From a virus: a DNA stretch of 64,000 nucleotides. The stretch lies in the UHGV virus genome UHGV-1364187, one strand, 5' to 3'. The position numbers were made by a program, and so were the translations under genes. Below are positions 70 through 63,076 of this stretch, piece after piece (the stretch's first letter is position 1; the number at the start of each line of letters is the position of its first letter). The notes under the pieces are model-generated. The model was given only the letters and a program-made list of their open reading frames with translations. It did not search any database and was not told the DNA's origin.

Positions 70-1902
70 TTTTACTCTTGGTTCAATTGTTGCTGGAATT
101 ATCATTGCAACTGAACCATTATGTTCTTCTTCCTCAGTTGGTTCTTGAACTATACTTACAGAACCATTAGTTTGATTTCTATATTGTGATAATAAGTAAA
201 TATTATCTCTATTATGAAGTTTATCTTCTAATGGTAAACTTACACTTTCATCATTAAGATTCTCTTCTTGTTGTTGCATAACTTCGGCTCTTGTTCTCAT
301 TCTACTGCTAGAAGAAGTAAGACCTAAATTAGCAATATCATCTTTAAGAGTTTCTTTAAATACTGGAACAAATTTATCTATATCAACATCAAGTCTAATA
401 TGATTTGGTGATGTAAATGGTTGGCAAATATAATATCTAGGAGTACATTTACCTCTACATTTAAATCTATTAAATGACATATATTTATCACCTTTACTAT
501 CATATTCTACATCAATAATAGCTCCCCAATCAATTACATTAAGAATTAAAATTGACTCTGCTATTTGTGCTCTTCCTAATACTCTAGCTACATCTTGTAC
601 ATTATTCAATCTAGCATTATCAGTTTTAGCTGTAGCATCACGATTTAATTGTCCGAATGAAATTACAGGGATATCTTTTAATATAGCAAATGTTTTCATT
701 TCTTCTGCGACTTTTCCTAATTCAACTCTCATATCAGGACATTTATACGTAGATCTAATACAGTTAATATAATCAAAGATAAGAGCTACCATTTCAACTC
801 CTTCATCTTCTAAATCTTCTGCCAATGTATAAAAATATCCTGTATCAACTGAACCATTTGGTACATATTTTACAATGATATCTATTGGAGATTCGTCAGT
901 TAAACATAATTCTCCATCTTCTCTAAGCATTCTAATTACTTCATCAAGACTATAATTTTGTAATTCTGAGTCTGGCGTTAATGCTATATCGAATATACGT
1001 TCAATAGTTTCAGTAATTTGATTTTCCATTGTAAGTAATACAACAGCTGGTCTTTTTGTTGCATCTTTTGGTTGATAATATCTATTAGCTTTTTTCATTT
1101 GTAGTAATAAATTTGTCGCTAATAATGATTTACCAGTATTTGGACATGCAAAGTACATATATAAACGTCCACTTTCAAATCCACCATATGTAAGTTCATT
1201 CATACCCTGCATTCCACATAATAATCTATTATTATTTGATGATAATCTATCATAAGCATCAGTTACAACATTTTGAAATATACCATCTTTCAATGAAAAG
1301 ATTTGATCTGTCATAGATTGTGTTGCAACTCTTCTAAAATTAGATTTGATTTTATCTACCATAGTTTCAATTTCTTTAACAATTGCACCTTTAGATAGAT
1401 AATTACTTGACTTAAATCTAGTCAATACATCAATAAAATCATCTACATCATTGTAGATAAATGAGTATTTTAAAGTTTCTGATACTGTACCATTTACAAA
1501 TTCCAATTCTTCTGTAGATAAAATAAAGTCTTCATAATTTATATCTAAAACATTGTCGTCCATAAACCCATCGTTTATATATTTAATGATAACGTCTGGT
1601 TGTCTTAAATTTTTATCTAATCTTGCTTCTAGAGCTTTTTTAATAAATCTAATCCTCTTCATCTTCTCAGGATCAGATTTATAAATATCCATATTTATAA
1701 TTTCAAATAAGTTTCTTAAACTAATTAGGTGAGATCTCTTTACTGATAAATTTAATGATAGTGTATAGAAACACATAAGATTTAAAGATGTCAAATCAAA
1801 ATTGACATCTATTAAATTTACTTTAGATTTATCTTTTACTACATTATGTCCTTGTCCTGTTATTCTTTTTCTTCTTGTAAGTGACATACTTCCTACACTC
1901 AT
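55..1902 (-). CDS. dnaB: DnaB-family replicative helicase (ORF extends to 1926; probable start ATG 1902 with GGAGGGG RBS)
   Basis: RecA-fold motifs: GRLYMYFACPNTGKSLLATNL (Walker A-like), LTMENQ, ALIFDYINCIR, SFGQLNRD (DnaB arginine-finger QLNR motif); C-terminal tail carries IPATIE motif. Confidence 0.7.
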   Translation of the reverse strand: MSVGSMSLTRRKRITGQGHNVVKDKSKVNLIDVNFDLTSLNLMCFYTLSLNLSVKRSHLISLRNLFEIINMDIYKSDPEKMKRIRFIKKALEARLDKNLRQPDVIIKYINDGFMDDNVLDINYEDFILSTEELEFVNGTVSETLKYSFIYNDVDDFIDVLTRFKSSNYLSKGAIVKEIETMVDKIKSNFRRVATQSMTDQIFSLKDGIFQNVVTDAYDRLSSNNNRLLCGMQGMNELTYGGFESGRLYMYFACPNTGKSLLATNLLLQMKKANRYYQPKDATKRPAVVLLTMENQITETIERIFDIALTPDSELQNYSLDEVIRMLREDGELCLTDESPIDIIVKYVPNGSVDTGYFYTLAEDLEDEGVEMVALIFDYINCIRSTYKCPDMRVELGKVAEEMKTFAILKDIPVISFGQLNRDATAKTDNARLNNVQDVARVLGRAQIAESILILNVIDWGAIIDVEYDSKGDKYMSFNRFKCRGKCTPRYYICQPFTSPNHIRLDVDIDKFVPVFKETLKDDIANLGLTSSSSRMRTRAEVMQQQEENLNDESVSLPLEDKLHNRDNIYLLSQYRNQTNGSVSIVQEPTEEEEHNGSVAMIIPATIEPRVKEVAL

Positions 1903-1925: not shown

Positions 1926-3107
1926 TTAGAGGTCTTCTATTATCTGTTTAACCTCTTCTGATGTTATACAATCATACCCTTCTTTAAGATTGATATAGAT
2001 TGCTATTTTTTCATATTTATCTAATTGTCCGTCAAGTAAAAATAAATATTGTTCTAATTCTTTATGCTGTTCTTTTACTTGTTCAACAATCTTTCTCTTT
2101 TTAGAATCACTTTGTTTTATTTTTACTCTATTGTTATTACTATAATACTTTTTTATAATCTCGATTTTGCTTAATTGTTCCTGATTTGGTACAATTAGGA
2201 ATTCTAATCTTAGAAATTCTATATCTTCTAAAATAGAATTGACATAAAAAATAATCTCATCTGGAGATCTATCTATCATATCATCCAGATTAAGAGTTAT
2301 ATATTTTCTACATTCTATTTGCTGGAAATAACAATAATGTTCACTTGTATTACAATTATAGAATGATATAAAGAAACCTTTTGCCCCTTCATCGCCAAAT
2401 GACCATCTATACGGTGAACCACAGTAATAGAAATATTTATCAAAACATCCTGTTGTATGAACATGTCCTGATAATATATAACCTTTACAATTACAGAAAT
2501 CATTCATAGTAAATACTTTATTTCGTGGATTAGTATTATCTAATGTAATTACTTTATCTTGATATACTGCACCTTTATACATACCATGAACAACAGCAAT
2601 ATCATATAAACCACTTTCTTTCATTATATTATCATAATATTCTTGTGGTTTATTATATTCTTCTGGTAAACATAATACTCTAATACCTTTAATGATTTCA
2701 AATCTAGCTTGTTCTACTATACGGATATCTAATTCTGGATCACTTAAATAAGAATAGAATAACTTCAATTGTCCAGAATCATGTTCTTTAGTACCATCTA
2801 TGATTAATAAAGTAGCATTTTTTCTTTTTACTTGTTCTACTATATCTTTCATCAACAATAATCCATACATTATAGTCTGAGAATTTGCCATTTCTTTTTT
2901 ATGAAAATAATCTCCAGCAATAACAAATATATCATAGTTTATATTTTCTAATGGTGATAGCATCTGATCTCTGATAACAGAATATTGGTAGGATAAATCC
3001 ATCCTACCAATATGTAAGTCTGCAGTAGATACTATAGTTAATATATTATTTGGTCTTACATTTAAATTTTCATCTTCTGGTCTTGTAAACACTGCAGGAA
3101 TAATCAT
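1926..3107 (-). CDS. calcineurin-like metallophosphoesterase, Mre11/SbcD-like nuclease
   Basis: phosphoesterase motifs ADLHIGRMD, IAGDYFH, GTKEHD, VVHGM, SGHVHT; N-terminus MIIPAVF. Confidence 0.65.
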   Translation of the reverse strand: MIIPAVFTRPEDENLNVRPNNILTIVSTADLHIGRMDLSYQYSVIRDQMLSPLENINYDIFVIAGDYFHKKEMANSQTIMYGLLLMKDIVEQVKRKNATLLIIDGTKEHDSGQLKLFYSYLSDPELDIRIVEQARFEIIKGIRVLCLPEEYNKPQEYYDNIMKESGLYDIAVVHGMYKGAVYQDKVITLDNTNPRNKVFTMNDFCNCKGYILSGHVHTTGCFDKYFYYCGSPYRWSFGDEGAKGFFISFYNCNTSEHYCYFQQIECRKYITLNLDDMIDRSPDEIIFYVNSILEDIEFLRLEFLIVPNQEQLSKIEIIKKYYSNNNRVKIKQSDSKKRKIVEQVKEQHKELEQYLFLLDGQLDKYEKIAIYINLKEGYDCITSEEVKQIIEDL

Positions 3108-3608: not shown

Positions 3609-4457
3609 TTACTCTTCCCCCTTTTTAAATATATTTGGAACTGTTATAAAATTATCAGATATAGTTCCAGCCTCATTTAATGTAGTATGAATAATATGTT
3701 CTTTATTATAAATTACATCTGGAATATTCATACCACGTTTTAATACTTCTATGTCAATATCATTACCGTCTGAATGAATAGCATATACATTTGACATAAA
3801 TTTTTTAACTTTTTCTTCATCACCATTAAATAATGATGTTACTCTATAAATAAATTTATCAATATTCATATGTGGATTATCAGGATAACTTTGTAAAGTT
3901 AAATCTTGATAGAATTGGTCAAATTCTGCTATATGTTTGGCTAATCCAACAAATTTGACAGATTTATCAAATTCAATATCAGATGAATCACCAGAATAGT
4001 ATATATAACCATTATAGTGATTTATAGCTAATGCATAACAGTTTTTATATTCCCCATGTTCTACTGGAACAAATAAAATTTCTGTGTCCATAATATCATT
4101 GTAATAATCTTTTACTTCATACATTAACGGATCAACTTTGCACATTCCAAGATATGCTACAATTGAACCTTTATCTGGAAAATATACGGTTGGCTTAATA
4201 CCTTTTATATAATTACAATATTCAATTAAAGAACCTAAACTGCCTACATGATCTGAATGAAGATGAGTAATAATAATATTAACTGTTTTAATATTATCAT
4301 CTATAAGTTTAAGTCTAAGAATCTGTTTAAAAATATCACCACCACAGTCTATAAGTGTAAATACATTATATTCTGGTAACACGAAAAATGCTGAATTGTT
4401 GTGTTGATCTTCATTAAAACAACTTCCTCTACCAATAAAATTTAATAATTGTTCCAT
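3609..4457 (-). CDS. metallo-beta-lactamase-fold hydrolase (possible phosphodiesterase)
   Basis: MBL signature ITHLHSDHVGSLG (HxHxDH) preceded by LIDCGG and followed by conserved His/Asp positions. Confidence 0.65.
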   Translation of the reverse strand: MEQLLNFIGRGSCFNEDQHNNSAFFVLPEYNVFTLIDCGGDIFKQILRLKLIDDNIKTVNIIITHLHSDHVGSLGSLIEYCNYIKGIKPTVYFPDKGSIVAYLGMCKVDPLMYEVKDYYNDIMDTEILFVPVEHGEYKNCYALAINHYNGYIYYSGDSSDIEFDKSVKFVGLAKHIAEFDQFYQDLTLQSYPDNPHMNIDKFIYRVTSLFNGDEEKVKKFMSNVYAIHSDGNDIDIEVLKRGMNIPDVIYNKEHIIHTTLNEAGTISDNFITVPNIFKKGEE

Positions 4458-5991: not shown

Positions 5992-6014
5992 TATATATAA
6001 TATATAATTGAAAA
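5992..6014 (-). promoter_or_regulatory. conserved phage early-promoter-like motif (plus-strand text TATATATAATATATAATTGAAAA; functional sense 5'-TTTCAATTATATATTATATA)
   Basis: one of at least 12 near-identical copies located 30-60 nt upstream of minus-strand start codons. Confidence 0.55.
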
Positions 6015-13810: not shown

Positions 13811-13853
13811 TAATACATTAACATATTTTATTCCGTTATCAACAGTAAATTTT

Positions 13854-14030
13854 TACACTTGAATAAAGATATTGTCATTATGACCGCTTGATAATTTATA
13901 TGTTGATATTACTGATGGAATTTGTAAAGATAATGATAGTGAGAAATTATAAAGTACATTTGGTAGTGGATCTTCTCCAATCTTAAATAATCCTCGTTGT
14001 GTTGCATCGTATAAAGTTTCTTTTTTCATA
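13854..14030 (-). CDS. small hypothetical ORF (about 58 aa) not in the ORF track
   Basis: ATG 14030 (MKKETLYDATQRGLFKIGEDPLPNVLYNF...) in otherwise empty intergenic space. Confidence 0.25.
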
Positions 14031-14235: not shown

Positions 14236-15408
14236 TTACAATCTTGTCTTAAGAACTTCTAAAATCTTAAATTGTAAAGTTGATGGATTAATTAATTCAT
14301 CACCTCTCATATTTACAACATTATCAATATTTACTCCATAATTATTACACATACCAGATGCAGTTTCTTTATTAATCTTACCAATTTCAATATGGTAATC
14401 AAATCTACCATTTCTAAGTATAGCATCATCTAATTTATCTTTATAATTAGTAGTACCAATAAAGATACAATTATTTGGAGAGTTAATACCATCTAATACA
14501 TTAAGAAGATCACCAATTGTATCATATTTCATACTCTTCATATAATTATCAAATGGATTATATTGTTTATCTTTCTTATTATCATCTTTATCAGATCTTG
14601 TTCCTGTAGAACAATCTATATCTTCAAACAATATTACAGAATTAGTCATTCTTGAAATATTATTTATAAGATTATCATTAATATAATTAACTTTTATAAT
14701 TACTAATCTATATCCCATATAACTAGCAATAGCCTTAGCAAATGATGATTTACCAGTTCCAGGTTCTCCATATAATAGAATACCTATATTATGTTTTATT
14801 TGATGCTTTTTATAGATAAAGTCATCTTTCTTAAACTTCTCAAGTATATCTATAATCTGTTCTTTTTTGTCTGAGAATATATTATTCATTGAATATTTAT
14901 CATATTCATATTGATAAAAACTACCATTTTCTGAATATTGTCTAACATCTAATTTATTTACACTTTCTCCTCCTTTGTTTATATAATTAGTAATATATTC
15001 AAATTCTTGCTTCGCATTGACTCCACATATAGAAATATTTATTATATGATTACGAGAATCAGAAGCATCAAATGGAATATTACTAATTGTATATAAACAC
15101 TTATTATGCCATCCAGTGAAATGTAGATTAGAAGGTATATTATTGTCACTTGATGTTGATTTACTTTCATCTAAATATCTATTTGGTTTATAAAATTTAT
15201 TTAAATTTGGAAATAATTCATGCAAGACTTTACATGTATTGTTATAAGGTTCTAACCAAAACATATCATCAACTTGTATCTTATAACATATCTTTTGTTC
15301 AATTGATTTCTTCACTAATGGTGTAACTGTTCTTACAACACTATTTCCTAAGTTTGTTAATCCTGCTACTGCTGCTAATTTCATTAATTGTTTAACTTCT
15401 TTATTCAT
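14236..15408 (-). CDS. AAA+ ATPase, Bcs1-like classical AAA (paralogue 1)
   Basis: C-terminal AAA module: IGILLYGEPGTGKSSFAKAIA (Walker A), ILFEDIDCS (Walker B), IFIGTTNYKDKLDDAILRNGRFDYHIEIG (second region of homology); about 200-aa unique N-terminal domain. Confidence 0.75.
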   Translation of the reverse strand: MNKEVKQLMKLAAVAGLTNLGNSVVRTVTPLVKKSIEQKICYKIQVDDMFWLEPYNNTCKVLHELFPNLNKFYKPNRYLDESKSTSSDNNIPSNLHFTGWHNKCLYTISNIPFDASDSRNHIINISICGVNAKQEFEYITNYINKGGESVNKLDVRQYSENGSFYQYEYDKYSMNNIFSDKKEQIIDILEKFKKDDFIYKKHQIKHNIGILLYGEPGTGKSSFAKAIASYMGYRLVIIKVNYINDNLINNISRMTNSVILFEDIDCSTGTRSDKDDNKKDKQYNPFDNYMKSMKYDTIGDLLNVLDGINSPNNCIFIGTTNYKDKLDDAILRNGRFDYHIEIGKINKETASGMCNNYGVNIDNVVNMRGDELINPSTLQFKILEVLKTRL

Positions 15409-15622: not shown

Positions 15623-16498
15623 TTAATTTCTTTCACATAATAATTTTAATTGTAATTCACTTTGATTATATGGTGCTTCCATATCTTTAAGAATCTTATC
15701 TGGATCGGCACCAAAATATCTACACATATTTTCTGCAACTTCTCTATTATGTATTGGTTTAACTTCAAAGATCATATCAAATCTACCACTACGTAATAAA
15801 GCTTCATCTAATTTTTCTATATGATTCGTAGTAGCAATAAACATAACTTCTTCTTGAGAGTTAATACCATCCATTACATTTAACAATCCAGCGATATTAT
15901 TTTTATCTTCTACAACTTCCCCATTATCATTAACATTATTAGTTTTCTTATCTAAATATCTATCTATATCTTCAAATACATATATTGTTTCTTCGTATTT
16001 TGGGAGAGTTTTTAATTTAAATGGATCATTTACAGTAATAATACGTCTATTTGTATAATATGCTATAGCTTTGATAAGACTAGTTTTTCCTGTACCTGGT
16101 TCGCCATATAATAAAACTCCAGTCTTATGTATAATATGTTTTTCTTTATAAAAATCTGTATTTGAATTAAATTTGTCTATAAATTTAATAAGTGGTGATA
16201 TATCATCAAAGAATAATTCATCTAAAGATTTACAATATACACGATTAATTAAACCGTTTATAGTATTTGTATTACTATCAAATTCTTGAACATATACAGA
16301 ATTTGGTCTTGATTTAATAGGTGGATGATATTCATCAATTTCTTTAAAAATTTCCAATTTATTATGTCCTATAATATAAAACTTACACGTATTAAAATTT
16401 TTCATTACCTTATTGTCAGTACCTATAGTTTTGAATTCACTTTTTATATCAAATATAATATATGATGATTTATATATACATATATGAATACCGCTCAC
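15623..16498 (-). CDS. AAA+ ATPase, Bcs1-like classical AAA (paralogue 2)
   Basis: TGVLLYGEPGTGKTSLIKAIA, IYVFEDIDR, MFIATTNHIEKLDEALLRSGRFDMIFEV. Confidence 0.75.
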   Translation of the reverse strand: MSGIHICIYKSSYIIFDIKSEFKTIGTDNKVMKNFNTCKFYIIGHNKLEIFKEIDEYHPPIKSRPNSVYVQEFDSNTNTINGLINRVYCKSLDELFFDDISPLIKFIDKFNSNTDFYKEKHIIHKTGVLLYGEPGTGKTSLIKAIAYYTNRRIITVNDPFKLKTLPKYEETIYVFEDIDRYLDKKTNNVNDNGEVVEDKNNIAGLLNVMDGINSQEEVMFIATTNHIEKLDEALLRSGRFDMIFEVKPIHNREVAENMCRYFGADPDKILKDMEAPYNQSELQLKLLCERN

Positions 16499-21354: not shown

Positions 21355-22011
21355 TTATTTTTCTTTTGGTTCTATTGTTGCTGGAACAATTAATTGTTCA
21401 ATTCTATCAACTTTTTGTTGTAATTGGTTAATCTGATTGTACATAAATCTATTTTGTTCATATAAAGGTGTAATCATTGCACTGAATAACCTACCCATAT
21501 CATATACAATTTGTTGCGTATTGAAATGATATTCTGTTTCTCCTAAAGAATCATTTATATATGTTTCGTTAGTTTTATCATCAATAGATTCCATTATTTC
21601 TTTAGAATCATATATTGGATTTGGTAATTGAAAATTTGGATCGTGGTTTTGATCTGTATAACTTCCATTCATATAGATAGATGGTAACAATTCATAAGAT
21701 ATCCAATTCTTAAATTCTTTAGCACATGGCATCTTTGAAGCATAAATAAGATTGAATACATCTGGAAGTTTAATAAAGTTCGTCATTTGCTCTCTACTGA
21801 TAGAATCAGTGACGTTACGTTTCGTAACGTCATCACAATGATCATTAATAACCTTTCTAAAACTATTCTTACTATACCCTAAAATATCTAATACATCATT
21901 AGCACAGAATAATGTATCCGTTTGGTTACCATTTTCTGCTGGTATGATTCTTACACTTCCTAGATTGTTAAAGATAAATTCTTGTACTTTATTCATTTTT
22001 GATTCCTCCAT
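21355..22011 (-). CDS. Bro-N domain protein (antirepressor-like DNA-binding), paralogue 1
   Basis: Bro-N signature MNKVQEFIFNNLGSVRIIPAENGNQTDTLFCANDVLDILGYS...FIKLPDVFNLIYASKMP...EFKNWISYELLPSI; C-terminal LIVPATIEPKEK. Confidence 0.65.
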   Translation of the reverse strand: MEESKMNKVQEFIFNNLGSVRIIPAENGNQTDTLFCANDVLDILGYSKNSFRKVINDHCDDVTKRNVTDSISREQMTNFIKLPDVFNLIYASKMPCAKEFKNWISYELLPSIYMNGSYTDQNHDPNFQLPNPIYDSKEIMESIDDKTNETYINDSLGETEYHFNTQQIVYDMGRLFSAMITPLYEQNRFMYNQINQLQQKVDRIEQLIVPATIEPKEK

Positions 22012-22049
22012 TTATTTTAAATTTAATTAGAATATTTTTATTCTAATCA

Positions 22050-22077
22050 CTTATATAATATATATAATCAAAATTTT
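22050..22077 (-). promoter_or_regulatory. early-promoter-like motif (variant AATCAAAAT)
   Basis: TATATAATATATATAATCAAAATTTT with a 5'-UTR hairpin (22026-22047) before the Bro-N gene. Confidence 0.4.
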
Positions 22078-22087
22078 AAAATATTAC

Positions 22088-22693
22088 TTATTTTTCTTCT
22101 TCTATCGTTGCTGGAACAATAAGTTTACCTTGGACTATTGGATACTTAGGTAAATTTTCATAATCGTCACTACCATTATTAATCATAACAGTACAATTAT
22201 GATCTATAAGAGATTTATCTATTAAATATTCTCCTAATTGTTCTGGAGTTGCTAATATATCATCATTAAATACCATATGTTCTTGACCATTAGGTTTTAT
22301 TATCATATATACCATAGAATCATATGAATTAGTAGAAAAACCATTTAGATTACAACTATCTATATACATAGGACATACTTCAAATGTTCTATTTATAATA
22401 TTACCATTATTATATTGAACATTATCTATACAACTATATATTTCATATCTAGCATTTTCTAAATCTTCCCATTGAATATTACTATGCTCTTTTAAATATT
22501 GAATGGTATAATTTGTAACTTGTGTGTTATCTATAATATTTACTTCATCTTGAATATAAAATTCCATATATAAAGTGCTATTTTTATCGGTATGATATGA
22601 TTGAAATAGTGGATTATCACTTACAATACAAGTGCTCATTCCTACTTCATCTTTTGATACTAATACATAAAAAATTTTATTCATAATATACAT
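22088..22693 (-). CDS. hypothetical protein with C-terminal LIVPATIEEEK tag
   Basis: 201 aa. Confidence 0.45.
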   Translation of the reverse strand: MYIMNKIFYVLVSKDEVGMSTCIVSDNPLFQSYHTDKNSTLYMEFYIQDEVNIIDNTQVTNYTIQYLKEHSNIQWEDLENARYEIYSCIDNVQYNNGNIINRTFEVCPMYIDSCNLNGFSTNSYDSMVYMIIKPNGQEHMVFNDDILATPEQLGEYLIDKSLIDHNCTVMINNGSDDYENLPKYPIVQGKLIVPATIEEEK

Positions 22694-22747
22694 CTCCTTA
22701 TATAGGTAATAAAAAGAGATATCTAAATGATATCTCTTTATTTTTTA

Positions 22748-23470
22748 TTAAAATCCAATTGTCCCATTAATTTTAAACGGTCCAATATTAAATGAACCCT
22801 CTATTTTTGACTGTTTAAAAAGATCAAACATAGAATGTTTATTATTTTCAGTATTATTAGTATTAGGTTGTTCATTTGCTACATTTCTAGGAACAATAAC
22901 AGCTGGTGTGATCATTTCATTATTTCTAATCTCATAATGTGTGCCATAATATTCTTGTCCAAGTCCTTGCTCAACACCAGCAAAATTAATATTTGAACAT
23001 CCACTATCTATAACATCTCCATCTACCATTTGATTAACAACATTTTCTAATGACCCCATAGGGTTTGTTATCGGATATAGTCTACTTAAATCACATTTAC
23101 AATCATAATCACATTGAACATATAGTTCTGGTTTTGATGGATATGGATTTCCATATAGATCACATTGTTGTACTTGAACTATTCTTCCTTTATAACTACA
23201 TGGAATAATATTTGCATCATCAGTTAATACTGAACTAGTTTTATCACAAAATACAACAGTACAATTATCTGATATATCATATCCTAACATTTTAAGATTT
23301 GTCAATAGTTTTTCTGCAAATATAGAATTTCCTAATTCAATTCTGATTGAAGAAGATAATGGAAAATCTTTAATATATACTTCTTTAGCACTTTCTGGAT
23401 CAAATGTACAATCGTCAGATATGATAAATTTGCCTAGTGAATAATTTAATACATATAACATTTCTACCAT
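22748..23470 (-). CDS. hypothetical Cys-rich protein with MITPAVIVP motif
   Basis: 240 aa. Confidence 0.45.
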   Translation of the reverse strand: MVEMLYVLNYSLGKFIISDDCTFDPESAKEVYIKDFPLSSSIRIELGNSIFAEKLLTNLKMLGYDISDNCTVVFCDKTSSVLTDDANIIPCSYKGRIVQVQQCDLYGNPYPSKPELYVQCDYDCKCDLSRLYPITNPMGSLENVVNQMVDGDVIDSGCSNINFAGVEQGLGQEYYGTHYEIRNNEMITPAVIVPRNVANEQPNTNNTENNKHSMFDLFKQSKIEGSFNIGPFKINGTIGF

Positions 23471-40492: not shown

Positions 40493-40986
40493 AGGCTCCG
40501 TCTTCACATAGAGTCGTGACTTCTATGCAGTTCTCTTATGAACTTCTATGAGTATTACTCATAAGGAGAGACTATATCTTCATCTTTTACTATTCTTATA
40601 TTATTTCAAATATAAGATACTACTAGCAGTCAGATGCCTTGCACTTCGGATATACTATATCCTACTCTACTCACTTCGTCTATATCTAATTTATTAGATA
40701 TACCTTATTTTTAACTAGATTACTAGTATATTAGCTTTCGATAGTCGTTGAACCTTCTCCTATATAATTTATATAAGAGCTTGGCTGCTGATTGGACATT
40801 GTTTGTTACTTGGCACGATACTTAGGCTCTCACCATATATCATCTTAATGATTATTTCTGTCTTTCGACTGCCATTCACGCTTACCTGTTACAGTTACGT
40901 TGTAGCTCATTAAGCATTAGCCCTTCCCAGACAAGTTCACAAGGTTTTTCTCCGTACATTTCTGTAGGGAGGACCCATCCACAAAT
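40493..40986 (-). mobile_element. group I self-splicing intron (ORF-less, about 0.49 kb, T4 td-like core) interrupting the beta' gene; boundaries approximate
   Basis: minus-strand P, Q, R and S core elements found in canonical order (coordinates in the intron finding); less AT-rich than flanks; stop codon of the upstream ORF lies inside it. Confidence 0.7.
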
Positions 40987-42147
40987 AGGTCGATTTATTA
41001 AAATAGGTATACCTTGACCGTCATCTATTAAAGATTGAATAATATTTCTAACTCTTTGGTCTTCTTGAATAGTGGCATAATACCAAATATTATGTGCTTC
41101 ATCATAAGACATATTATAAGATTTTACTAAAACATTTATAATTCTCTGTTCTAATAATCCTACTAATGCAAAGTATGATAATTTTACTTGGTCTACTTTT
41201 AATGTATCATCTGGAATGATTACACATCTAGAAGAGAAGTTAAATCTTCCTCCGAATACTCCTCTAAATATACCTTTCTTTCCAGATAATATATTTTCAA
41301 CTTCAGCATAAACTTTATTAAGTTTATATTGTAAATCGTATAATAATTGTAATTTAGGTTTCTTCTTTCTATGAATACGTAATGTATTCATATTGATATC
41401 ATGAACTAATTTTACAATCATATTATACAATCCATTAATATCGTTGAATACAAAGTTTCCACCATCAAGTTTGAATGGTCTTAATAGTGTCGTAAATATT
41501 GGTATAGAATGAGTAAATATCTTATCTTTATTCTCTAACAAATCAAGATAAGTATCAGTCTTAGCTTTCTTATTAGAAGAATTATTGTAATAATAATCTA
41601 AAACTGTTTCAAAGTTATCTCTTAACCATAATATACCTTTTCCTTTATATGGTTCATCTTTAACTTGTTTATTTTCTTCTATTGTAAATCCATCTTCATT
41701 CTTATTGTCTATTGGTTTTATGATATTATAAAGTTTCTCTGTTCCAATAATAGTCTCTAATTCTTTATATAGATTAGGATGGATTATACAATATTCATCT
41801 TTCAATACTGTCCAACCAAATAAGTCATAATTATCATCAACAAACTTTACTTTAGTATTACATATAGGACATGTCATGCCATTATTAATTTTACCCATAG
41901 TGTAACCACATGAACATTTATATTTGTTAATGAACGGGTTAGAGTCATTTAATGTAGAACCAAATCTAGTACTAAAAATACCATTTGGTTCTTTTAAATC
42001 CTTCTTAATGTTTTGATGTTGAAAGATAATGAACCCGTTACCAGTACGAAGATCATTATCTTTCTCTTTATCCAAGTCAATTCTTTCTAGTAATGTTTCA
42101 ACTTTAAATAAATTTCCAAGTTCATCTACAAGATGTGGATAATTCAT
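40987..42147 (-). CDS. rpoC-like: multisubunit RNA polymerase beta' N-terminal fragment, exon 1 (zinc-binding region)
   Basis: CSCGYTMGKINNGMTCPICNTKV zinc finger; ...PILINRP joins exon 2 (TISYG...) to restore the conserved LNR(A)PT(L)H...NADFDGD segment. Confidence 0.65.
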
Positions 42148-42213
42148 ATTTATATCATCTCCTTCAATAATATAATATATAAGTTAATAATAAGTTACAT
42201 ATACATTAATTTT

Positions 42214-42687
42214 CTAATGTATATGTAACTTATTATATTTATATTTATATTCTATAGACTTAGAATCTCTTTCTTGCTTCTTTTCTATCCACTCTTGAAC
42301 TTTATCTTTTATTTTATACTTGTTCACTAAACAACAGATTACATTATATGTGTCATTCATTGAATAGAAAAACCTAGATTTATAATTATTATACAAATAA
42401 GATTTACTAACAAGTTGTTGAAATCTTGATAAATTATAAATACACTGTTTAAGACTATATTCACGTCTTGATATTCTTATTCTCGCTTTCTTTTCGATTT
42501 TATGTCTAAGTCTATATAAACATGTGTAAACATCACATATTTCTTCAGAAAGATGATATATATCAATTTCTTGTTCAGATAAGCAATTTATCAATTCTGA
42601 TAACTCTTCTTGCATCTTCATAAAAATAAAATCATCACCACTCATATCAGTGATACTATGTTGTAATTTTGTATCTATTAAAAACAT
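42214..42687 (-). CDS. hypothetical protein
   Basis: 157 aa. Confidence 0.4.
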   Translation of the reverse strand: MFLIDTKLQHSITDMSGDDFIFMKMQEELSELINCLSEQEIDIYHLSEEICDVYTCLYRLRHKIEKKARIRISRREYSLKQCIYNLSRFQQLVSKSYLYNNYKSRFFYSMNDTYNVICCLVNKYKIKDKVQEWIEKKQERDSKSIEYKYKYNKLHIH

Positions 42688-42689
42688 TT

Positions 42690-43622
42690 CTATTCACATC
42701 CTTTATCAAAATACTTTCCTTTATAATAATTGCCAATTTTTATTGTATCTAAATTATATTCTGTGCATTTTTTACCGACAGTCAATCTAATATTTTTCTT
42801 ATGTAAAAGTTCTTCTGTTATTCCGATAGAATTCATATCTTCTTCAAAGTTAGTAAATGTTAACCATCTTTCACATATAGTATGTTCACTACACCATTCA
42901 GTATTATATACCATATATATTAATCTTGACCATTTTATATATAGTCTATTTTTGTTTTTATCACTAATAACTCTTCCTGTAGATGCTATACCACCACATA
43001 TGTTTTTATAAGTATGATCTATAACTTTTCCATTGTCCACACATCCAATATTATATTCTGTTTCATATCCAGATATTAAGAATTTTATTTTACACATTGT
43101 TATTTTTGTTCCATTTTTATTACGTGTACTATATGTTGAAGTTACAATGAATTCTAATCCATCTTTACTTGTATGAATTGTGGATTCAACAGTATTTAAT
43201 CTTTGTTTTGAATCTGAAATAGAACCATTTGTTATATTGCTTCTTGTGACATAATATATATTCTTAGATTCAATAAATTGTATTTTGTAATTACTACTTT
43301 GCGTATTATGTATCATCTTATATTTCTCATCCATATCCAATACTTTAAATTCTAATCCGTCATTATTTTTAAATATTTTACCTATAATATTTGATTTGTT
43401 ACATGGTCTATTGTATGTCTTATCTACTGCTAAATTATGCATTATTATATATCTTGATGCTTCGGTTTCATAATCAGTTTCTATAAATCTTATATTATAA
43501 TAATGATTATTATTTCCATCATATATACATCCAAGATGTTTTAATACAATAAATCTTCTTCCATATTTTCCTTCAAATTCTTTTCCAATGATATCGTTAT
43601 ACTCTACTACACTTCTTCCCAT
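42690..43622 (-). CDS. hypothetical protein with three about 55-aa internal repeats (ORF to 43682; likely start MGRSVVEY after AAAGGAGAG)
   Basis: repeats G(K/L)EF.VL...Y.I.F.E. Confidence 0.4.
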   Translation of the reverse strand: MGRSVVEYNDIIGKEFEGKYGRRFIVLKHLGCIYDGNNNHYYNIRFIETDYETEASRYIIMHNLAVDKTYNRPCNKSNIIGKIFKNNDGLEFKVLDMDEKYKMIHNTQSSNYKIQFIESKNIYYVTRSNITNGSISDSKQRLNTVESTIHTSKDGLEFIVTSTYSTRNKNGTKITMCKIKFLISGYETEYNIGCVDNGKVIDHTYKNICGGIASTGRVISDKNKNRLYIKWSRLIYMVYNTEWCSEHTICERWLTFTNFEEDMNSIGITEELLHKKNIRLTVGKKCTEYNLDTIKIGNYYKGKYFDKGCE

Positions 43623-43660
43623 TATAATACACTCTCCTTTAGTATTATTAAATATATACT

Positions 43661-43689
43661 CACATATATAATATATAATCAAAATGAAT
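43661..43689 (-). promoter_or_regulatory. early-promoter-like motif (AATCAAAAT variant)
   Basis: CACATATATAATATATAATCAAAATGAAT next to terminator 43686-43721. Confidence 0.45.
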
Positions 43690-43721
43690 ATTAGAATACC
43701 TTTTTTGGTATTCTAATATTC
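43686..43721 (-). terminator. hairpin terminator
   Basis: gaatattagaatacc/ggtattctaatattc. Confidence 0.6.
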
Positions 43722-43864
43722 ATTCTTTTCGTTCAAACAGCATATATATTTAGGAGATGATTTTTAATGGACTTAACTAACCCATTACAAATATGTTGTA
43801 TATATTATAAACTATTACTTTTTATATTTAGACAAATTAATAGATAGTATAGAATATATATATT

Positions 43865-45052
43865 CTATACTACATTTTTATGTGTTCTATATTTTACAAT
43901 ATCACTTATAGTACTAATATTATATCCAGTACTATATTTTATTTCAGTTAGTGTCATACCCTCTTGTTCATACATTCTTCTTATATCTCTTACAATATCA
44001 TCTGTTATACTTCTTCCAGGAGCATTGGATAAATCATATTGTTCATATATATCTCTATGTGCTCTACCGCTAGTAATATTCACAATAGTTTTTCTATTTA
44101 TATCAAGATGATGTGATATCATTGTTGGAGTATATCCATTGGAAAACAATATCATTATATTATGCACATCTTCATCTGTAATCTTAGTTGGAACATAAGC
44201 ATTAGATAAATCGTATTGATTTCTAATATCTAAATGTTTCTTTCCACCATATACAATATTAGTTACAGTTTTTCTATTTAAATTTAATTCATCTGCAATC
44301 TGATATGCTTGATACCCTTGAGAATATAATCTAAATATATCATGTAAAGTATCTTCTGGAAGTAATCTTGTAACTTGATCTAATTCTAATTCTTCATATA
44401 CATCTTTATGGCTAGAACCACATGATATATTTCTTACATTAACATATGAAACTCCAGTTTTTTCTGCAATTTCTTTAAGAGATAATGTTGTATCCTTAAT
44501 AAGATTACCAACTTCATAAGCTTTCTCTTTAGATATACATATAGCTTCTACTTCTGGTCTTAATTCTTCATATGAATGATGAACATTTTCTAATGGAGTA
44601 GCCCATTCAAGATTACATAACCAATTACACCATGTACAACCATTTATATGATTGACTTGATATTGTTCTGGATTTTCTATTGGAAGAAATGTCATCATTA
44701 CTAATCTATGAACAAAGTATATATGTTTCTTTCCATCAAGACATGATAATCCAACTCGTAGATATCCTTTATCTGTAGATTGTTGTTGCATGAATACATT
44801 ATTAAGTAATGAGAATATTCTTCCGTAATTACTTACCATATATCTTCCAGGAACAATTTCTTCTGAATTTATAAATACAAATATTTCATCTGGAGCCATA
44901 AGTGGGATATATGTATATTCTTGTTGATAATTTGAAAATTGTTCTGGTATATAATTTGGTGGTAGTTCTTTTCCAGTCTTAGAAATATATGCTGGAATTA
45001 TTAAATTTTTGATTTCTTGTCCTTCTTTATACTCTTTGTTTTTGTAATACAT
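43865..45052 (-). CDS. HNH homing endonuclease with NUMOD-like DNA-binding repeats
   Basis: HNH_3 core VHRLVMMTFLPIENPEQYQVNHINGCTWCNWLCNLEWATPLENVHHS; NUMOD4-like N-terminus; four repeated helix motifs (e.g. YQIADELNLNRKTVTNIVYG). Confidence 0.7.
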   Translation of the reverse strand: MYYKNKEYKEGQEIKNLIIPAYISKTGKELPPNYIPEQFSNYQQEYTYIPLMAPDEIFVFINSEEIVPGRYMVSNYGRIFSLLNNVFMQQQSTDKGYLRVGLSCLDGKKHIYFVHRLVMMTFLPIENPEQYQVNHINGCTWCNWLCNLEWATPLENVHHSYEELRPEVEAICISKEKAYEVGNLIKDTTLSLKEIAEKTGVSYVNVRNISCGSSHKDVYEELELDQVTRLLPEDTLHDIFRLYSQGYQAYQIADELNLNRKTVTNIVYGGKKHLDIRNQYDLSNAYVPTKITDEDVHNIMILFSNGYTPTMISHHLDINRKTIVNITSGRAHRDIYEQYDLSNAPGRSITDDIVRDIRRMYEQEGMTLTEIKYSTGYNISTISDIVKYRTHKNVV

Positions 45053-45128
45053 TTAAATCATCCTTTCTATTTTTAGATTATTTTTTTGTTAGTGTAATAT
45101 TAAAAAATAAATATAAACTAGGAACACC

Positions 45129-46382
45129 CTAGTTTATATTTAATATTCCAAATGCATCATTTAACATATCAGTAATGTCAGTAGTTTTAACAACACTATT
45201 ATGAAACGCTTTTAAGCTTCTTTGTTTGGTTGTTGAAGCGATTTTGCTCATAGCCATACCTATATGGGCTATACCTATTCTTCTAAATAGACTACTACCA
45301 CATACCTCACATATATCTTCACCTTCACATAATGCAGCGAATCTAAGATTAACAGTTTTATCTATAAATTGATTCTTTGTATCTGAAGTAATTTCAATTA
45401 CTTTATCTCCTTGTTGGACAAAACAATACATATATTGTTTAATATTCTTCTTTGTTAATTTAACTCTAATTGTACGTTTCGTTTTACAATCACTTCCCTT
45501 AGGAGAAATAGAAATATGTTGAAATCCACTGAATAATAATTTCTCCCAATATCCACCAATTTGAGTTTTGATAGCTCTCGCTGTTGCTCCAGGTGCAATA
45601 GAGTTAGCAAATATATGATAATCCTCTTTAGATATACCATCCATATAACATGATGTAGCTATATCATATTTACCTGTTACGTTATTATATACAGCACCTT
45701 TCATCATACACATATTCTTTAAGTTATTTTCAATATTACCTCTGGCTTTACAATCAAAGATTTCCATCGCATCATCATCTTTTAATATTTCTTTTGTTTG
45801 TGCTATTAATTGATTAGAAATATCTTCTGCTACAACTTCATCACCATCTTCAAGAGCTTTCTTATTCTCTTTAATAAGTTTAGTCTTTAATGGCTTAAGT
45901 TTATCTGATAAAGATAATATAGCATCATCATAATGAGCTGCTAATACTGTAGTTAATCTCATTAGTATTTGTGACTTTAATAAGAAATGTTTTAATGCAT
46001 CTAATGGTACTTTATCTTCCAATCTAGCATATGTAATATCAGATACAATATCATTAAATACATCATCATCTACAGAATAATTTATATACTTTTCTAATTC
46101 AAATAGTTCTTTCTCTATACATAGTCTATTAAATATCCATAACCCTACAGTAGTTGTAAATTCATTCTTATTTCTCTTTCCTTCAGGACCATAAGAATTT
46201 GGTGGAATTTTAATATAATTAAATGGTTCAAATCTTCTTTTATTGTTAAACTTTCCAAGTAATTCTATAATAAGACTTATAGTTAAATCTTTTTCTTCTA
46301 AAGATAATAGATAATCTATATCTTCTTGTTTTGTTATAAACACACCATCTTTTACTTTAGGCATATTATAATCTCCTTTCAT
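45129..46382 (-). CDS. rpoC-like: multisubunit RNA polymerase beta' C-terminal fragment (bridge helix + trigger loop)
   Basis: ATARAIKTQIGGYWEKLLF aligns with bridge helix DTALKTANSGYLTRRLV; KQRSLKAFHNS aligns with trigger-loop QLTMRTFH; ends with an ITDMLNDAFG (LPRVAELFEAR-like) helix. Confidence 0.5.
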   Translation of the reverse strand: MKGDYNMPKVKDGVFITKQEDIDYLLSLEEKDLTISLIIELLGKFNNKRRFEPFNYIKIPPNSYGPEGKRNKNEFTTTVGLWIFNRLCIEKELFELEKYINYSVDDDVFNDIVSDITYARLEDKVPLDALKHFLLKSQILMRLTTVLAAHYDDAILSLSDKLKPLKTKLIKENKKALEDGDEVVAEDISNQLIAQTKEILKDDDAMEIFDCKARGNIENNLKNMCMMKGAVYNNVTGKYDIATSCYMDGISKEDYHIFANSIAPGATARAIKTQIGGYWEKLLFSGFQHISISPKGSDCKTKRTIRVKLTKKNIKQYMYCFVQQGDKVIEITSDTKNQFIDKTVNLRFAALCEGEDICEVCGSSLFRRIGIAHIGMAMSKIASTTKQRSLKAFHNSVVKTTDITDMLNDAFGILNIN

Positions 46383-53599: not shown

Positions 53600-54265
53600 T
53601 TATCGTTGAATTATAGCTGGAATTTGTAATTGTTGATTATTATAACCAACAGCCATTCTTAAGAAGTATTGATTATACTCTTGTAATGTATAATTTGATG
53701 GTACTGGAGGATTTAATTCTCTAATAAGTTTAAGAATTAGCCCATCATTAAATTCTACAGTAGGAACCATCTTCCAAGCTTCAAATAAATCATGACTTGT
53801 ATATAAATCAAACATATATAATGTCATTGCTATATTAATGAAGTAATTTTGCATCCAACTAAATTGAATATATTGATCTCCACATACGATACCAAATGTC
53901 TGTGCTAAATATGCTTTAAATACATTTACATAATTCGTCTGTGCTTCATCTGGTGTTGCGTATAATATAATATTCTTTCCTATAGTTAATGCTTTAAGAA
54001 TACTAGCTATATAGTCCATGCACTCTTTTCTATTTAAATGCTCATAATACATTGTACAAAAACCGTCCATATCATTATTAACTTCGTGCATAAAACATTC
54101 GTAAGTTGGTGTTAATATACTAGCTACCAATGCTCCACATTGATTTACAAATTGTGGATCTACATTTTGACTAATTGCCACAACCACATTATTCTGTGGA
54201 TCTTGTCTAACGAAATCAAATACTACATTAGTATCTGATGTAAAATAAAGTGTTCCTGTAATCAT
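53600..54265 (-). CDS. hypothetical protein
   Basis: 221 aa. Confidence 0.45.
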   Translation of the reverse strand: MITGTLYFTSDTNVVFDFVRQDPQNNVVVAISQNVDPQFVNQCGALVASILTPTYECFMHEVNNDMDGFCTMYYEHLNRKECMDYIASILKALTIGKNIILYATPDEAQTNYVNVFKAYLAQTFGIVCGDQYIQFSWMQNYFINIAMTLYMFDLYTSHDLFEAWKMVPTVEFNDGLILKLIRELNPPVPSNYTLQEYNQYFLRMAVGYNNQQLQIPAIIQR

Positions 54266-54608: not shown

Positions 54609-56036
54609 TTATAAGTTCTCTAATCTTCTTTGATTAACTTTCTTTTTGTTTGGTACAAAGTTTTTAAGACTATCCTCTTTATCAGATTTTGTATCATCTT
54701 CATCTTGTTCGTCTTCATCTTGTTCTATCTCTTCTGTAGGTTCTAATCCATAAGAAGAATAATCTGGTTCTTCATCATCAGAACCCATCATTGCATCTTG
54801 AATAGATTTTGGATCTAAAGAAACATTATCATCTTCATCATCTTTTGTTACACTATATGTTTCTCTATCGTCTTGATAGAAATAATCATTCTTCTCTCTA
54901 GCAGAATAATCAGTTCGTGTTTCATGGTATTCATATGTGGTTGGTTCTGTATAATATGGCATTGTTGTTTGAATATTTTCTTGTTTTATAAAGTCTTTAA
55001 GAGCATCTCCAACAACATCACCAATAGTTTGTTGTGTATTATCTTCAATAACTCCAATAGGACCACGTTCTTCTTGTTTCTTTCTTTGTTCCTCTTTTTG
55101 TTTTCTTCGTTGTTCTTGTTCATATTTCTTAATTTCTTTAGGTGTCATCTTAACTTTTCTTGTTTTAATTACACCTGCAACTTCTTTCTCTTGAATAGTT
55201 TCTGTAGAACCATCAGATTCTGACATAACTTTTCCTCCAATAACTAATTGTGATACTAAACTCATATCATTCTCCTCCTTCATAATTTTTATTTCTTGCT
55301 TATGAATTGCACTAGCTAATTTTCTAGCTTGATAATGCATTCCACATTTTGTGCAATATAAATGATTAAATCCTTCATCGTAGTCTATTTCACCACCACA
55401 AGGAAATCCATTTATCATATTATTACAATATAATTTAGAGCCATCTAATTCAAATAGCATTGCATAATCTATTAAGACAACTCCAAAACCAGGTCTTACT
55501 CCATAGTTAAACATATAATTAGTTCCTATATCTTCCATAACATACTTACCCAATATCTTAGTAGTTATAAGATCATATATGTCTGGTGCTATAGATATAT
55601 ACTCTTCTCTTGATTGAACAGCTTTTACTCGTTCATAATTACCAACTACACCAGTATTTGCCTCTACCTCAAATGATTTACATACGTAAGGTTTAATAAA
55701 ATTCTGATTATAGTTTTCAGCATAGTTAGCCTTAATACCAACTTTATCTAAAGCTATTTTAAAACAATTTACATTACATTCATATGGTGCATATACTACT
55801 CTATTAGTACCACCACCTATTTTATGACATCCTCTTTTTATAAGTAATTGATTAATCATATCCTTCTTTTGATCAATCTTAGATGCATATTTTACAGAAT
55901 TGACTATCCATTGTAATGAATCTATATCATTATAATCTAACCAATTATATAGACTCGGTGCAGCCAATGTTTCAAAATTAAATTCTAATGGGGACATTTC
56001 TTTAGAATATAATATTGATCTAGGATTAAGTTTCAT
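54609..56036 (-). CDS. atypical protein-kinase-like fold protein with zinc ribbon and highly charged KE/DE-rich C-terminal region (tentative)
   Basis: Gly-rich loop IGGGTNRVVY, FKIA lysine, DIGTNYMFN and VVLIDYAML (DFG-like); CTKCGMHYQ; QEQRRKQKEEQRKKQEE and acidic tail. Confidence 0.3.
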   Translation of the reverse strand: MKLNPRSILYSKEMSPLEFNFETLAAPSLYNWLDYNDIDSLQWIVNSVKYASKIDQKKDMINQLLIKRGCHKIGGGTNRVVYAPYECNVNCFKIALDKVGIKANYAENYNQNFIKPYVCKSFEVEANTGVVGNYERVKAVQSREEYISIAPDIYDLITTKILGKYVMEDIGTNYMFNYGVRPGFGVVLIDYAMLFELDGSKLYCNNMINGFPCGGEIDYDEGFNHLYCTKCGMHYQARKLASAIHKQEIKIMKEENDMSLVSQLVIGGKVMSESDGSTETIQEKEVAGVIKTRKVKMTPKEIKKYEQEQRRKQKEEQRKKQEERGPIGVIEDNTQQTIGDVVGDALKDFIKQENIQTTMPYYTEPTTYEYHETRTDYSAREKNDYFYQDDRETYSVTKDDEDDNVSLDPKSIQDAMMGSDDEEPDYSSYGLEPTEEIEQDEDEQDEDDTKSDKEDSLKNFVPNKKKVNQRRLENL

Positions 56037-56877: not shown

Positions 56878-56906
56878 CATATATATAATATATAATTAAA
56901 ATAATT
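56878..56906 (-). promoter_or_regulatory. early-promoter-like motif copy
   Basis: TCATATATATAATATATAATTAAAATAAT then hairpin 56905-56933. Confidence 0.45.
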
Positions 56907-58925: not shown

Positions 58926-58954
58926 CATATATATAATATATAATTGAAAAATAG
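58926..58954 (-). promoter_or_regulatory. early-promoter-like motif copy
   Basis: CATATATATAATATATAATTGAAAAATAG then hairpin 58955-58981. Confidence 0.5.
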
Positions 58955-60685: not shown

Positions 60686-60713
60686 CATATATATAATATA
60701 TAATTGAAATTTT
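60686..60713 (-). promoter_or_regulatory. early-promoter-like motif copy
   Basis: CATATATATAATATATAATTGAAATTTT with hairpin 60714-60751 upstream. Confidence 0.45.
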
Positions 60714-63048: not shown

Positions 63049-63076
63049 TTATTTCGATTATATATTATAAATATGA
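63049..63076 (+). promoter_or_regulatory. early-promoter-like motif in plus-strand functional orientation
   Basis: TATTTCGATTATATATTATAAATATG 49-76 nt upstream of ATG 63125. Confidence 0.45.

Follow-up and report, generated by a model that had tools for sequence, protein, structure and literature searches.

In this work, we provide evidence that a short hydrophobic peptide (hereafter, the tag) recurs near the N- or C-termini of unrelated proteins encoded by an uncultured gut relative of the jumbo phage AR9/PBS1 of Bacillus, and that it changes in concert on different proteins of the same genome from one phage lineage to another. The stretch studied, referred to as the window, comprises 64,000 nucleotides of the virus genome UHGV-1364187 and corresponds to approximately 134.6-198.6 kb of a 256,505-bp metagenomic contig (ena:ERZ27229639:k119_250412), from which 74 kb (the 64-kb window and the adjacent 10 kb) were read. 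The reading we favour, with about as much trust as doubt, is that the tag is a co-evolving short linear motif by which its carriers dock on one common receptor, probably encoded by the phage and most likely part of the replication/recombination machinery.

A Recurrent Peptide near the Ends of Unrelated Proteins

The preliminary description of the window had listed eight carriers of the tag. In a six-frame scan with the pattern [LIMV][IVT]P[AV][TV][IFV], exactly eight matches were obtained, all in the frame of a long open reading frame (ORF), and these proved to be the very peptides listed, each in its own gene. The proposed enrichment was borne out by shuffling each protein, which gave an expectation of 0.07 matches, such that none of 300 shuffles reached eight; the strict pattern yielded five copies vs. 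approximately zero expected. With a position-specific scoring matrix (PSSM) built from the tag copies and a cut-off of 15 bits, 10 window sites were found vs. 0.08 expected, scoring 21-27 bits and cleanly separated from the rest. The two added sites, NLIIPAYIS (43865-45052) and QLQIPAIIQR (53600-54265), had been overlooked earlier and emerge when one position is relaxed. The window consensus is [LM][IVQ][IVT]PA[TVYI][IF], with a core of 7-8 residues; EQLIVPATIEPKEK and MIIPAVFTRPED are examples of the peptides with their flanks, and the adjacent 10 kb of the contig adds two further copies, ...DGMIIPARIIPKEQRMN and MSNFKRIPATIVPKG... The tag is thus borne by about one gene in six (approximately 17% of the window genes).

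All but one of the ten window copies are found no more than 20 residues from an N- or C-end, i.e., at positions that make up 14% of all residues. The C-terminal copies are followed by 1-13 variable residues, and 13-16 residues precede some of the N-terminal ones. The earlier statement that the tag always occupies a terminal tail therefore holds for nine copies but not for that in 22748-23470, which is internal and followed by an N/Q/T-rich low-complexity tail. Similarly, the tag of 57013-57708 had been placed at the very N-terminus; it is indeed near the N-end but begins at residue 14, not 1, because a strong AGGAGG ribosome-binding site favours the upstream ATG.

Synonymous codons vary among the copies (ATT/ATA/ATC, GTT/GTA, GCA/GCT, ACA/ACG, CCA/CCT), thus indicating, as had been proposed, that the tag is conserved at the peptide level. 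A DNA repeat, promoter or terminator was considered and rejected on the grounds of these variable codons, the coding-frame-only matches and the presence of copies at both protein ends. More generally, the recurrence could be an artefact of chance in an A+T-rich genome, of shared tail ancestry or of a DNA-level element at gene ends: the two Bro-N carriers (21355-22011 and 63125-63811) are paralogues with homologous tails, and CCA and GCA recur among the copies. We consider such an artefact practically negligible, given the eight copies in place of 0.07, the complete lack of matches in non-coding frames, the codon variation, the occurrence at N-termini, C-termini and once internally, and the co-variation of the peptide, not the DNA, across 49 genomes (see below). 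Apart from the Bro-N pair, the description of the carriers as unrelated stands: the tag occurs convergently in at least nine unrelated protein families of the window, above chance (8-10 copies vs. 0.07-0.08).

Table 1. Tag copies, candidate copies and early-promoter cores in the window, and the corresponding peptides of related lineages (aa, amino acids)
Element	Position	Strand	Location or remark
MIIPATIE	82-105	-	Residues 608-615 of the 623-aa DnaB-like helicase (gene 55-1926), 8 residues from the C-end
MIIPAVFT	3084-3107	-	Residues 1-8 of the Mre11/SbcD-like metallophosphoesterase (gene 1926-3107)
LIVPATIE	21370-21393	-	Bro-N protein 21355-22011, 4 residues from the C-end
LIVPATIE	22100-22123	-	201-aa protein 22088-22693, 3 residues from the C-end
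MITPAVIV	22892-22915	-	Residues 186-193 of the 240-aa protein 22748-23470; sole internal copy
LIIPAYIS	44981-45004	-	Residues 17-24 of the HNH homing endonuclease 43865-45052
LQIPAIIQ	53606-53629	-	221-aa protein 53600-54265, 1 residue from the C-end
MVTPAVII	57646-57669	-	Residues 14-21 of the 231-aa protein 57013-57708
LVIPAVIV	59522-59545	-	Conserved 257-aa protein 59504-60277 (phrog_12252, HNH-like core), 5 residues from the C-end
LIVPVTIE	63782-63805	+	Bro-N protein 63125-63811, 1 residue from the C-end
YQIPANFY	58238-58261	-	Probable divergent tag; RNase H 58169-58906, 22 residues from the C-end
LQIPSVIS	13904-13927	-	Candidate tag in the 58-aa putative ORF 13853-14029; PSSM 14.5 bits
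ITVPNIFK	3624-3647	-	Weak candidate; metallo-beta-lactamase-fold hydrolase 3609-4457, 4 residues from the C-end
Early-promoter cores (examples)	5997-6006, 22055-22064, 42172-42181, 56885-56894, 58933-58942, 60693-60702, 63059-63068		Match to the AR9 core
244,002-bp contig			Helicase C-tail LESPVTFV; Mre11-like N-terminus MMKMISPVNF; 59504 homologue LISPVTFI
244,002-bp contig			Positional counterparts by synteny only: of 57013, EMVSPVVFY; of 53600, C-end LTPPVRLA
L006			Helicase C-tail LLKPLFV; Mre11-like N-terminus MKPLF; small protein QLKPLFV
L007			Helicase C-tail QLFKIMAVV; Mre11-like N-terminus MIKIMREV; small protein KLQPIMTKV
225-kb phage (putative pairing of the two proteins)			Helicase RLEEAIVFV; 59504 homologue KLEQAVMFV; Mre11-like N-terminus not seen
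IMG/VR pairs			Helicase tail/Mre11-like N-terminus: QPMVTF/IPMVKF; VKPFTI/MKPFQI; RGMIYE/PGMVYE; MIPALLF/MIPALYF; YCPFSI/YCPFDI; LIDPL/LIDPL; NPFIHV/NPFIHI; RDALEF/RNAIEF; RDVIFM/RDVITF

The carriers of recognisable function all act on DNA: the DnaB-like helicase (which matches Pfam divDNAB and the PHROG DnaB-like helicase), the Mre11-like phosphoesterase, the two Bro-N proteins and the HNH homing endonuclease (PHROG HNH endonuclease, E = 6e-49; similar to the AR9 HNH homing endonuclease g271). The ATG of the Mre11-like gene is preceded by an AAGGAG ribosome-binding site, and the first 15 or so residues of its product constitute an extension that AR9 g002 lacks. In the 59504 protein, the core is well predicted, contains invariant His/Asn residues and weakly matches the structure of HNH endonucleases; together with RNase H, this protein is probably a further DNA-acting carrier. 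The RNase H peptide YQIPANFY agrees with a clade-wide form, hydrophobic-x-x-P-x-x-F, and the RNase H of a 244-kb relative bears MINPISF at the same position. No Pfam or PHROG match was found for 22088-22693. As for the candidates, LQIPSVIS is the sole PSSM match between the ten strong sites and the background, while ITVPNIFK, seen by eye, falls below the PSSM threshold and is not kept in two related loci (L001 and L004). IAPPASIQE (56043-56846) was rejected as a tag copy, being conserved as KLPSSISQE in the relative L010, whose real tags have changed.

The gene of the tagged homing endonuclease (395 aa, free-standing; region 40882-46382, minus strand) is located between homologues of AR9 g270 and g264, which encode the N-terminal part of the non-virion RNA polymerase beta' subunit and the C-terminal part of the virion RNA polymerase beta subunit, respectively; the AR9 counterpart endonuclease, g271, resides inside an intron of g270.

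The window also encodes RNase H, virion proteins and homologues of the AR9 split virion and non-virion RNA polymerase subunits. No tag was found on any recognisable virion protein in the window, and its RNA polymerase subunit genes are likewise without it. These data bear on the earlier suggestion that the tag, ending in I-E, is a prohead-protease cleavage site, or else a capsid-targeting sequence for packaged proteins. Four window copies do end in this way, T4-type and phiKZ-type head proteases cut after Glu, and T4 capsid-targeting sequences are also short terminal peptides. However, Glu is present in only four of the ten window copies, others reading PAVIV, PAVII, PAVF, PAYIS or PAIIQ, and is absent from other lineages (e.g., LKPLF, SPVTF), whereas the T4 (L/I-x-E) and phiKZ (S/A/G-x-E) sites require it invariably. 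Moreover, the carriers are non-structural proteins, including replication and nuclease enzymes, and as most copies are C-terminal, cleavage would remove just 1-13 residues. A role in prohead processing or packaging is therefore very improbable, and the protease proposal is not sustained.

The AR9 early-promoter core, TATATATTAT, has 20 matches in the window vs. 9.4 expected, a number reached in none of 100 shuffles. About two thirds of them are intergenic and point at the downstream gene, and several lie just upstream of carriers, e.g., the cores at 22055-22064 and 63059-63068 ahead of the Bro-N genes 21355-22011 and 63125-63811. By analogy with AR9, this suggests early expression of the carriers; judging from the sequence match, AR9 and this distant clade may have the promoter of the virion RNA polymerase in common.

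The Tag Changes in Concert from Lineage to Lineage

The window has a G+C content of 24-30%, each strand carrying its own gene blocks. Its DnaB-like helicase shares 31% identity with that of Bacillus AR9/PBS1 and 26-29% with those of Staphylococcus jumbo phages. A megablast search against sequenced phages found no near-identical relative of the window; the closest relatives came from ENA metagenome assemblies, at least one of which is labelled pig gut. A search of IMG/VR with the helicase as a single sequence found no relatives either, but an alignment-based scan did, yielding 80 further loci, many of which show a matching helicase/Mre11-like pair of their own (Table 1). AR9-like phages possess multisubunit RNA polymerases, with chimallin reported absent; their group has a divergent family-B DNA polymerase together with DnaB and RNase H1, without a classical sliding clamp and without a primase (Iyer et al. 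2021; group-1 jumbo phages). We found no description of such a terminal tag in the literature on jumbo phages.

Conservation of the tails in related phages, on which the preliminary description had hung its proposal, was found in the closest relatives, and beyond them the tag co-varies. Among 120 helicase homologues, the five closest (P0002-P0006, 68-82% identity) keep the tail tag as MIIPAVII, MVIPAIFL, FIIPATIA, FIIPATII and MVIPAYIS, while remoter ones bear other short hydrophobic, usually Pro-centred peptides in their tails. Of the helicase homologues, 48% have the pattern hydrophobic-x(1,2)-P-hydrophobic-x-hydrophobic within their 25 C-terminal residues, vs. 3.7% of internal windows. The 59504 family behaves as the helicase does, the tag being kept in the closest relatives and replaced by variants further out. 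The Mre11-like orthologues begin with MIIPAVF or MIIPAVI, and in other lineages with MISPVNF, MKPLF, MIKIMREV or MKFPIQFF.

The most important finding is that, within one genome, different client families share the variant of that genome (SPVxF, LKPLF, NPFIH, YCPF.I, MIPAL.F and others; Table 1). Thus, the SPVxF lineage is represented by a 244,002-bp contig (LEMO22-1_SAMN17062633_METAG-scaffold_16, comprising the loci L004 and L010), in which the helicase, the Mre11-like protein and the 59504 homologue all bear this variant. To quantify the co-variation, the similarity between the helicase tail and the Mre11-like N-terminus of the same genome was summed for a set of 49 non-redundant genomes. 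The observed value was not attained in any of 20,000 permutations, and the own-genome partner outscored every other in 12 of the 49 genomes vs. approximately one expected. In at least eight lineages, a third, small protein, whose gene is located a few kb downstream, bears the tag of its lineage as well, at times in tandem; neither this protein nor its neighbours gave PHROG matches.

Tandem tags on one tail were also observed in close relatives of the window, e.g., NMIIPAYIIPAVIVDKGKI, and tandem lineage tags occur at L001 1470-1871, L001 6192-7070, L040 10004-11797 and 17599-18159, and L053 14559-15077 (examples among these relatives are NMIIPAYIIPAVIV, IYPAEI...IYPAFI, LIDPLIEIEYYDLIDPLE and MIEGITF...MIEGIEF). 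Such an arrangement hints at a multivalent or oligomeric receptor. In another locus (L011 12545-13219), a 123-aa ORF consisting of Bro-N only precedes one of 90 aa with the tag at its end (MIIPARIIPKEQRMN); either a Bro-N gene has been divided, or the sequencing may have introduced a frameshift.

In the more distant members of the clade, the Mre11-like protein is without its N-terminal extension, and many 59504 homologues have no tail. AR9/PBS1 was rejected as an experimental proxy: its helicase ends with DSGIPF, its Mre11-like protein has no N-terminal extension, and the tail of g242, the 59504 homologue, is unrelated. Given these absences and the lack of a shared tag in the AR9 homologues checked, the multi-client system seems to have expanded within this uncultured clade, its origin perhaps being a helicase tail of the ancestor. 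The AR9 helicase (g007, L005 3583-5268) ends with ...EKDSGIPF, resembling the C-terminal tip DDDIPF of the bacterial single-stranded DNA-binding protein (SSB); from its sequence, this tail may represent the ancestral single-client form.

The Tag Is Found on Tails Predicted to Be Disordered

AlphaFold2 models were built from family alignments for two carriers. In the helicase, the core (residues 31-531) is predicted with confidence, while the predicted local distance difference test score (pLDDT) is below 50 for almost all of the residues 532-623, which include the tag. The 59504 protein likewise has a confident core, followed by a linker (residues 233-246) with pLDDT below 50 and the tag with 45-55; block means over its last 25 residues are 44-55. 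Docking of the helicase tail in cis was rejected, as AlphaFold2 leaves the tail unplaced. In both modelled tails, the tag is thus a short conserved core within a region predicted to be disordered, as is characteristic of short linear motifs.

Unstructured termini are also what unfoldases of the AAA+ type need to start on a substrate, and the window contains two adjacent classic-clade AAA ATPase genes, so that the tag could be conceived as a degron or unfoldase-recognition signal, by which an AAA+ machine of the phage or the host times the turnover or remodelling of early proteins. We regard this as quite unlikely. Degrons of the ssrA-like or N-end-rule kind lie at the very end of the protein, where the last or first residue is fixed, whereas the tag is followed by 1-13 variable residues, may be internal and works at either terminus; its clients include the replicative helicase, which is required throughout replication. 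We know of no ssrA-type, N-degron or ClpX motif that it resembles. The ATPase genes themselves (14236-15408 and 15623-16498, minus strand; Pfam PF00004, E ~1e-22) encode Walker and second-region motifs that look Bcs1-like by eye, and a homologue lies near the helicase in L003; no PHROG function was found for them, and the 100 kb of AR9 used for comparison contained nothing similar.

A Proposed Docking Motif for a Common Receptor

The preliminary description had proposed a shared docking or targeting signal, and our data support this view by the enrichment, the terminal position, the low-pLDDT tails that AlphaFold2 leaves unplaced, the conservation in orthologues, the DNA-acting nature of the clients and, above all, the concerted change between lineages, seen on three to six client families. 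Unrelated proteins change one peptide together, as if to fit one drifting site, and a common receptor is the best explanation for this. Fast and concerted change between lineages leads us to infer that the receptor is encoded by the phage rather than being a conserved host hub. The nature of the clients, taken with the reported lack of a clamp and a primase, makes a component of the replication/recombination machinery the likeliest receptor.

In this reading, the mechanism would be as follows. The tag would reside in intrinsically disordered regions at either end of early, non-structural, mostly DNA-acting proteins. Every copy of a given genome would bind one groove of one receptor (hub), and docking would concentrate the clients where the hub sits, our best guess being the clamp-less family-B-polymerase machinery for replication and recombination. 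Candidate hubs are the polymerase (PolB) or an accessory subunit, an ssDNA-binding protein or a UvsX-like recombinase. The tag would then be a functional counterpart of the PIP-box/clamp-binding motifs, the RPA-binding motifs or the C-tails of T7 gp4/gp2.5. The human POLE2 protein, a receptor for NPF-type motifs on replication proteins, provides a precedent for a PolB-associated motif hub.

The search for homologues of the AR9 DNA polymerase g152 returned a set without the window contig or its close relatives. In this set (P0241-P0355, divergent family-B polymerases), the extreme C-terminus is conserved as ...LESLGFKTLDI..QFPTN[IV]LxF or ...SNI[IV]x[FIL]. Such tails bind a processivity factor in other polymerases. 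The QFPTN[IV]LxF terminus was rejected as a tag, since it does not co-vary with the tags.

Several points weigh against docking on a replisomal hub. No receptor was found in the 74 kb of the genome read, and AR9 has no multi-client tag, either on the homologues checked or at the ORF termini in 100 kb of its genome. Four carriers are without known function, and the clientele, at about 17% of genes and with Bro-N proteins and a homing endonuclease among them, is broader than a purely replisomal contact predicts. Finally, many-client hub motifs such as the PIP-box and the beta-clamp motif are normally very stable in evolution, and the fast divergence of the tag is no less compatible with a system for specificity or exclusion.

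Such a system could be one in which the tag acts as an address, or a terminal "password", licensing entry to or retention in a phage DNA factory (a compartment, a condensate or a DNA-bound scaffold), with the dialects of individual lineages excluding the proteins of competing phages or the host. The broad clientele, in which about one gene in six, including accessory and mobile genes (Bro-N, homing endonuclease), would need access to the phage DNA, fits this possibility, as does the rapid concerted divergence, which resembles that of the species-specific import determinants in nucleus-forming relatives; the tandem tags of several lineages suggest a multivalent partner. A conserved Q/N-rich prion-like protein (56043-56846) and the two AAA ATPases are encoded nearby, though nothing ties either to the tag. 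On the other hand, no compartment is known for AR9-like phages, in which chimallin is reported to be missing, chimallivirus import relies on surface patches rather than on terminal signals, no shell or pore gene was seen within the 74 kb examined, and the window RNA polymerase subunit genes are untagged. Overall, we consider an address tag doubtful, although it is the strongest of the competing explanations. In its boldest form, it would apply to jumbo phages that have multisubunit RNA polymerases but no chimallin, the password and its reader both diversifying rapidly among lineages and thereby shutting out nucleases and regulators of the host or of co-infecting relatives. If this is true, phage replication compartments would gain their first linear targeting signal, with concerted evolution of dozens of motifs per genome.

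The prion-like protein (approximately 265 aa, minus strand) is conserved and comprises a Q/N/M/Y/G-rich N-terminal region and a Q-rich middle; no family match was found. Its counterparts are located at L006 15828-16607, L007 15849-16673 and L010 13719-14516, in a conserved early block with RNase H and several carriers. From its composition, it could be a scaffold or condensate former.

The tag might alternatively serve to hijack a hub of the host (beta-clamp, SSB, chaperone or RNA polymerase), the dialects then mirroring different hosts. Divergence is what one would predict for phage lineages that infect different hosts, QLKPLF in L006 resembles clamp-binding variants, and QGLVIP is presumably comparable to the MutL-type clamp motif QxxhxP. 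However, such hubs are very conserved and their motifs near-universal, whereas fairly close phages (63% vs. 70% helicase identity to the window) already differ in their tags, and remoter dialects (RDALEF, YCPFSI, LIDPL, KIMAVV) share almost nothing; nor do the window copies have Q at a fixed position. This makes a host hub unlikely, less so than a degron but more so than an address tag.

Comparison with Known Systems

Docking of the tag on a phage hub would have several parallels. Clamp-binding motifs are found on polymerases, nucleases, RNase H and helicases, often at the extreme N-terminus, and all enter one groove of one hub. Just as the PIP-box, beta-clamp and T4/RB69 gp45 peptides, the tag is short and hydrophobic, resides on disordered N- or C-tails and is shared by unrelated DNA enzymes. 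In contrast to them, it changes between related phages, the clamp motifs being stable across kingdoms. The PIP-box consensus Q-x-x-[LIM]-x-x-[FY]-[FY] is not matched, as none of the ten window copies has a fixed-distance Gln or an aromatic pair; the window consensus also departs from the beta-clamp consensus QL[SD]LF/QLxLxL, to which there is an isolated likeness elsewhere (QLKPLF in L006). Hence, of the earlier idea of a clamp- or SSB-like hub protein, the common hub is retained, but its classical clamp version is weakened by this mismatch and by the reported absence of a clamp.

The tails of T7 gp4 and gp2.5, which bind the gp5 polymerase, and the E. coli SSB tip DDDIPF offer another possible analogy, namely, a helicase C-tail as a tether and an acidic stretch ahead of a hydrophobic tip. 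In the window helicase, the acidic stretch EPTEEEEH is located upstream of the tag, which is followed by PRVKEVAL; the comparable AR9 end is DSGIPF. Unlike T7, where there are two clients and an aromatic last residue is obligatory, here there are at least 12 clients and the tag need not be terminal. In the SSB system, the tail belongs to the hub and every client provides a pocket of its own; in our case, it is the clients that carry the tail.

In hubs of the POLE2 or RPA type, a subunit associated with the polymerase or the SSB recognises a degenerate motif of the x-P-F type on many replication/repair proteins. Several dialects of the clade can be written as [NKCES]-P-[FLIVM]-x-[FI], resembling x-P-F, a likeness of motif type that serves only as a lead. 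However, the x-P-F hubs are eukaryotic, the phage Mre11-like phosphoesterase is a client and not a receptor, and no homologous receptor was identified here.

Two further systems serve for comparison. Nucleus import in chimalliviruses (PicA/Imp1) operates in related jumbo phages with multisubunit RNA polymerases, selects DNA-acting proteins and has species-specific determinants; however, the PicA/Imp1 cargo is recognised by surface patches on the folded proteins, not terminal peptides, and AR9-like phages lack chimallin. Encapsulin cargo-loading peptides and the T4 capsid-targeting sequence are, like the tag, short terminal peptides placed after a flexible linker on unrelated cargo, but no shell gene is associated with the tag, and its cargo consists of replication/recombination enzymes, virion proteins being untagged.

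Neighbouring Genes

The metallo-beta-lactamase-fold hydrolase 3609-4457 (minus strand), encoded beside the replication genes, has positional counterparts at L001 7555-8283 and L004 7522-8274 that match Pfam PF23023 (anti-Pycsar Apyc1). By this sequence match, it is a possible cyclic-nucleotide-degrading anti-defence enzyme. The gene 54609-56036 (minus strand) encodes a 475-aa protein without a family match, in which a kinase-like GxGxxG region, a Cys-rich (zinc-ribbon-like) segment and a tail of approximately 190 residues, highly basic and then highly acidic, can be discerned.

Conclusions

If one receptor reads the tag, it would organise a large share of the early proteome in a widespread uncultured clade of gut jumbo phages, and its identity would show how a clamp-less, primase-less replisome recruits the helicase, nucleases and RNase H. 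The 7-8-residue peptide itself is a direct handle on this receptor, and the lineage tag can be used to predict members of the DNA-handling machinery among genes of unknown function. The concerted change of dozens of copies per genome, as opposed to the usually frozen hub motifs, points to selection for private specificity, e.g., for the exclusion of competitors. At least 49 lineages, each with its own dialect, constitute a natural data set for the co-evolution of a motif and its hub.

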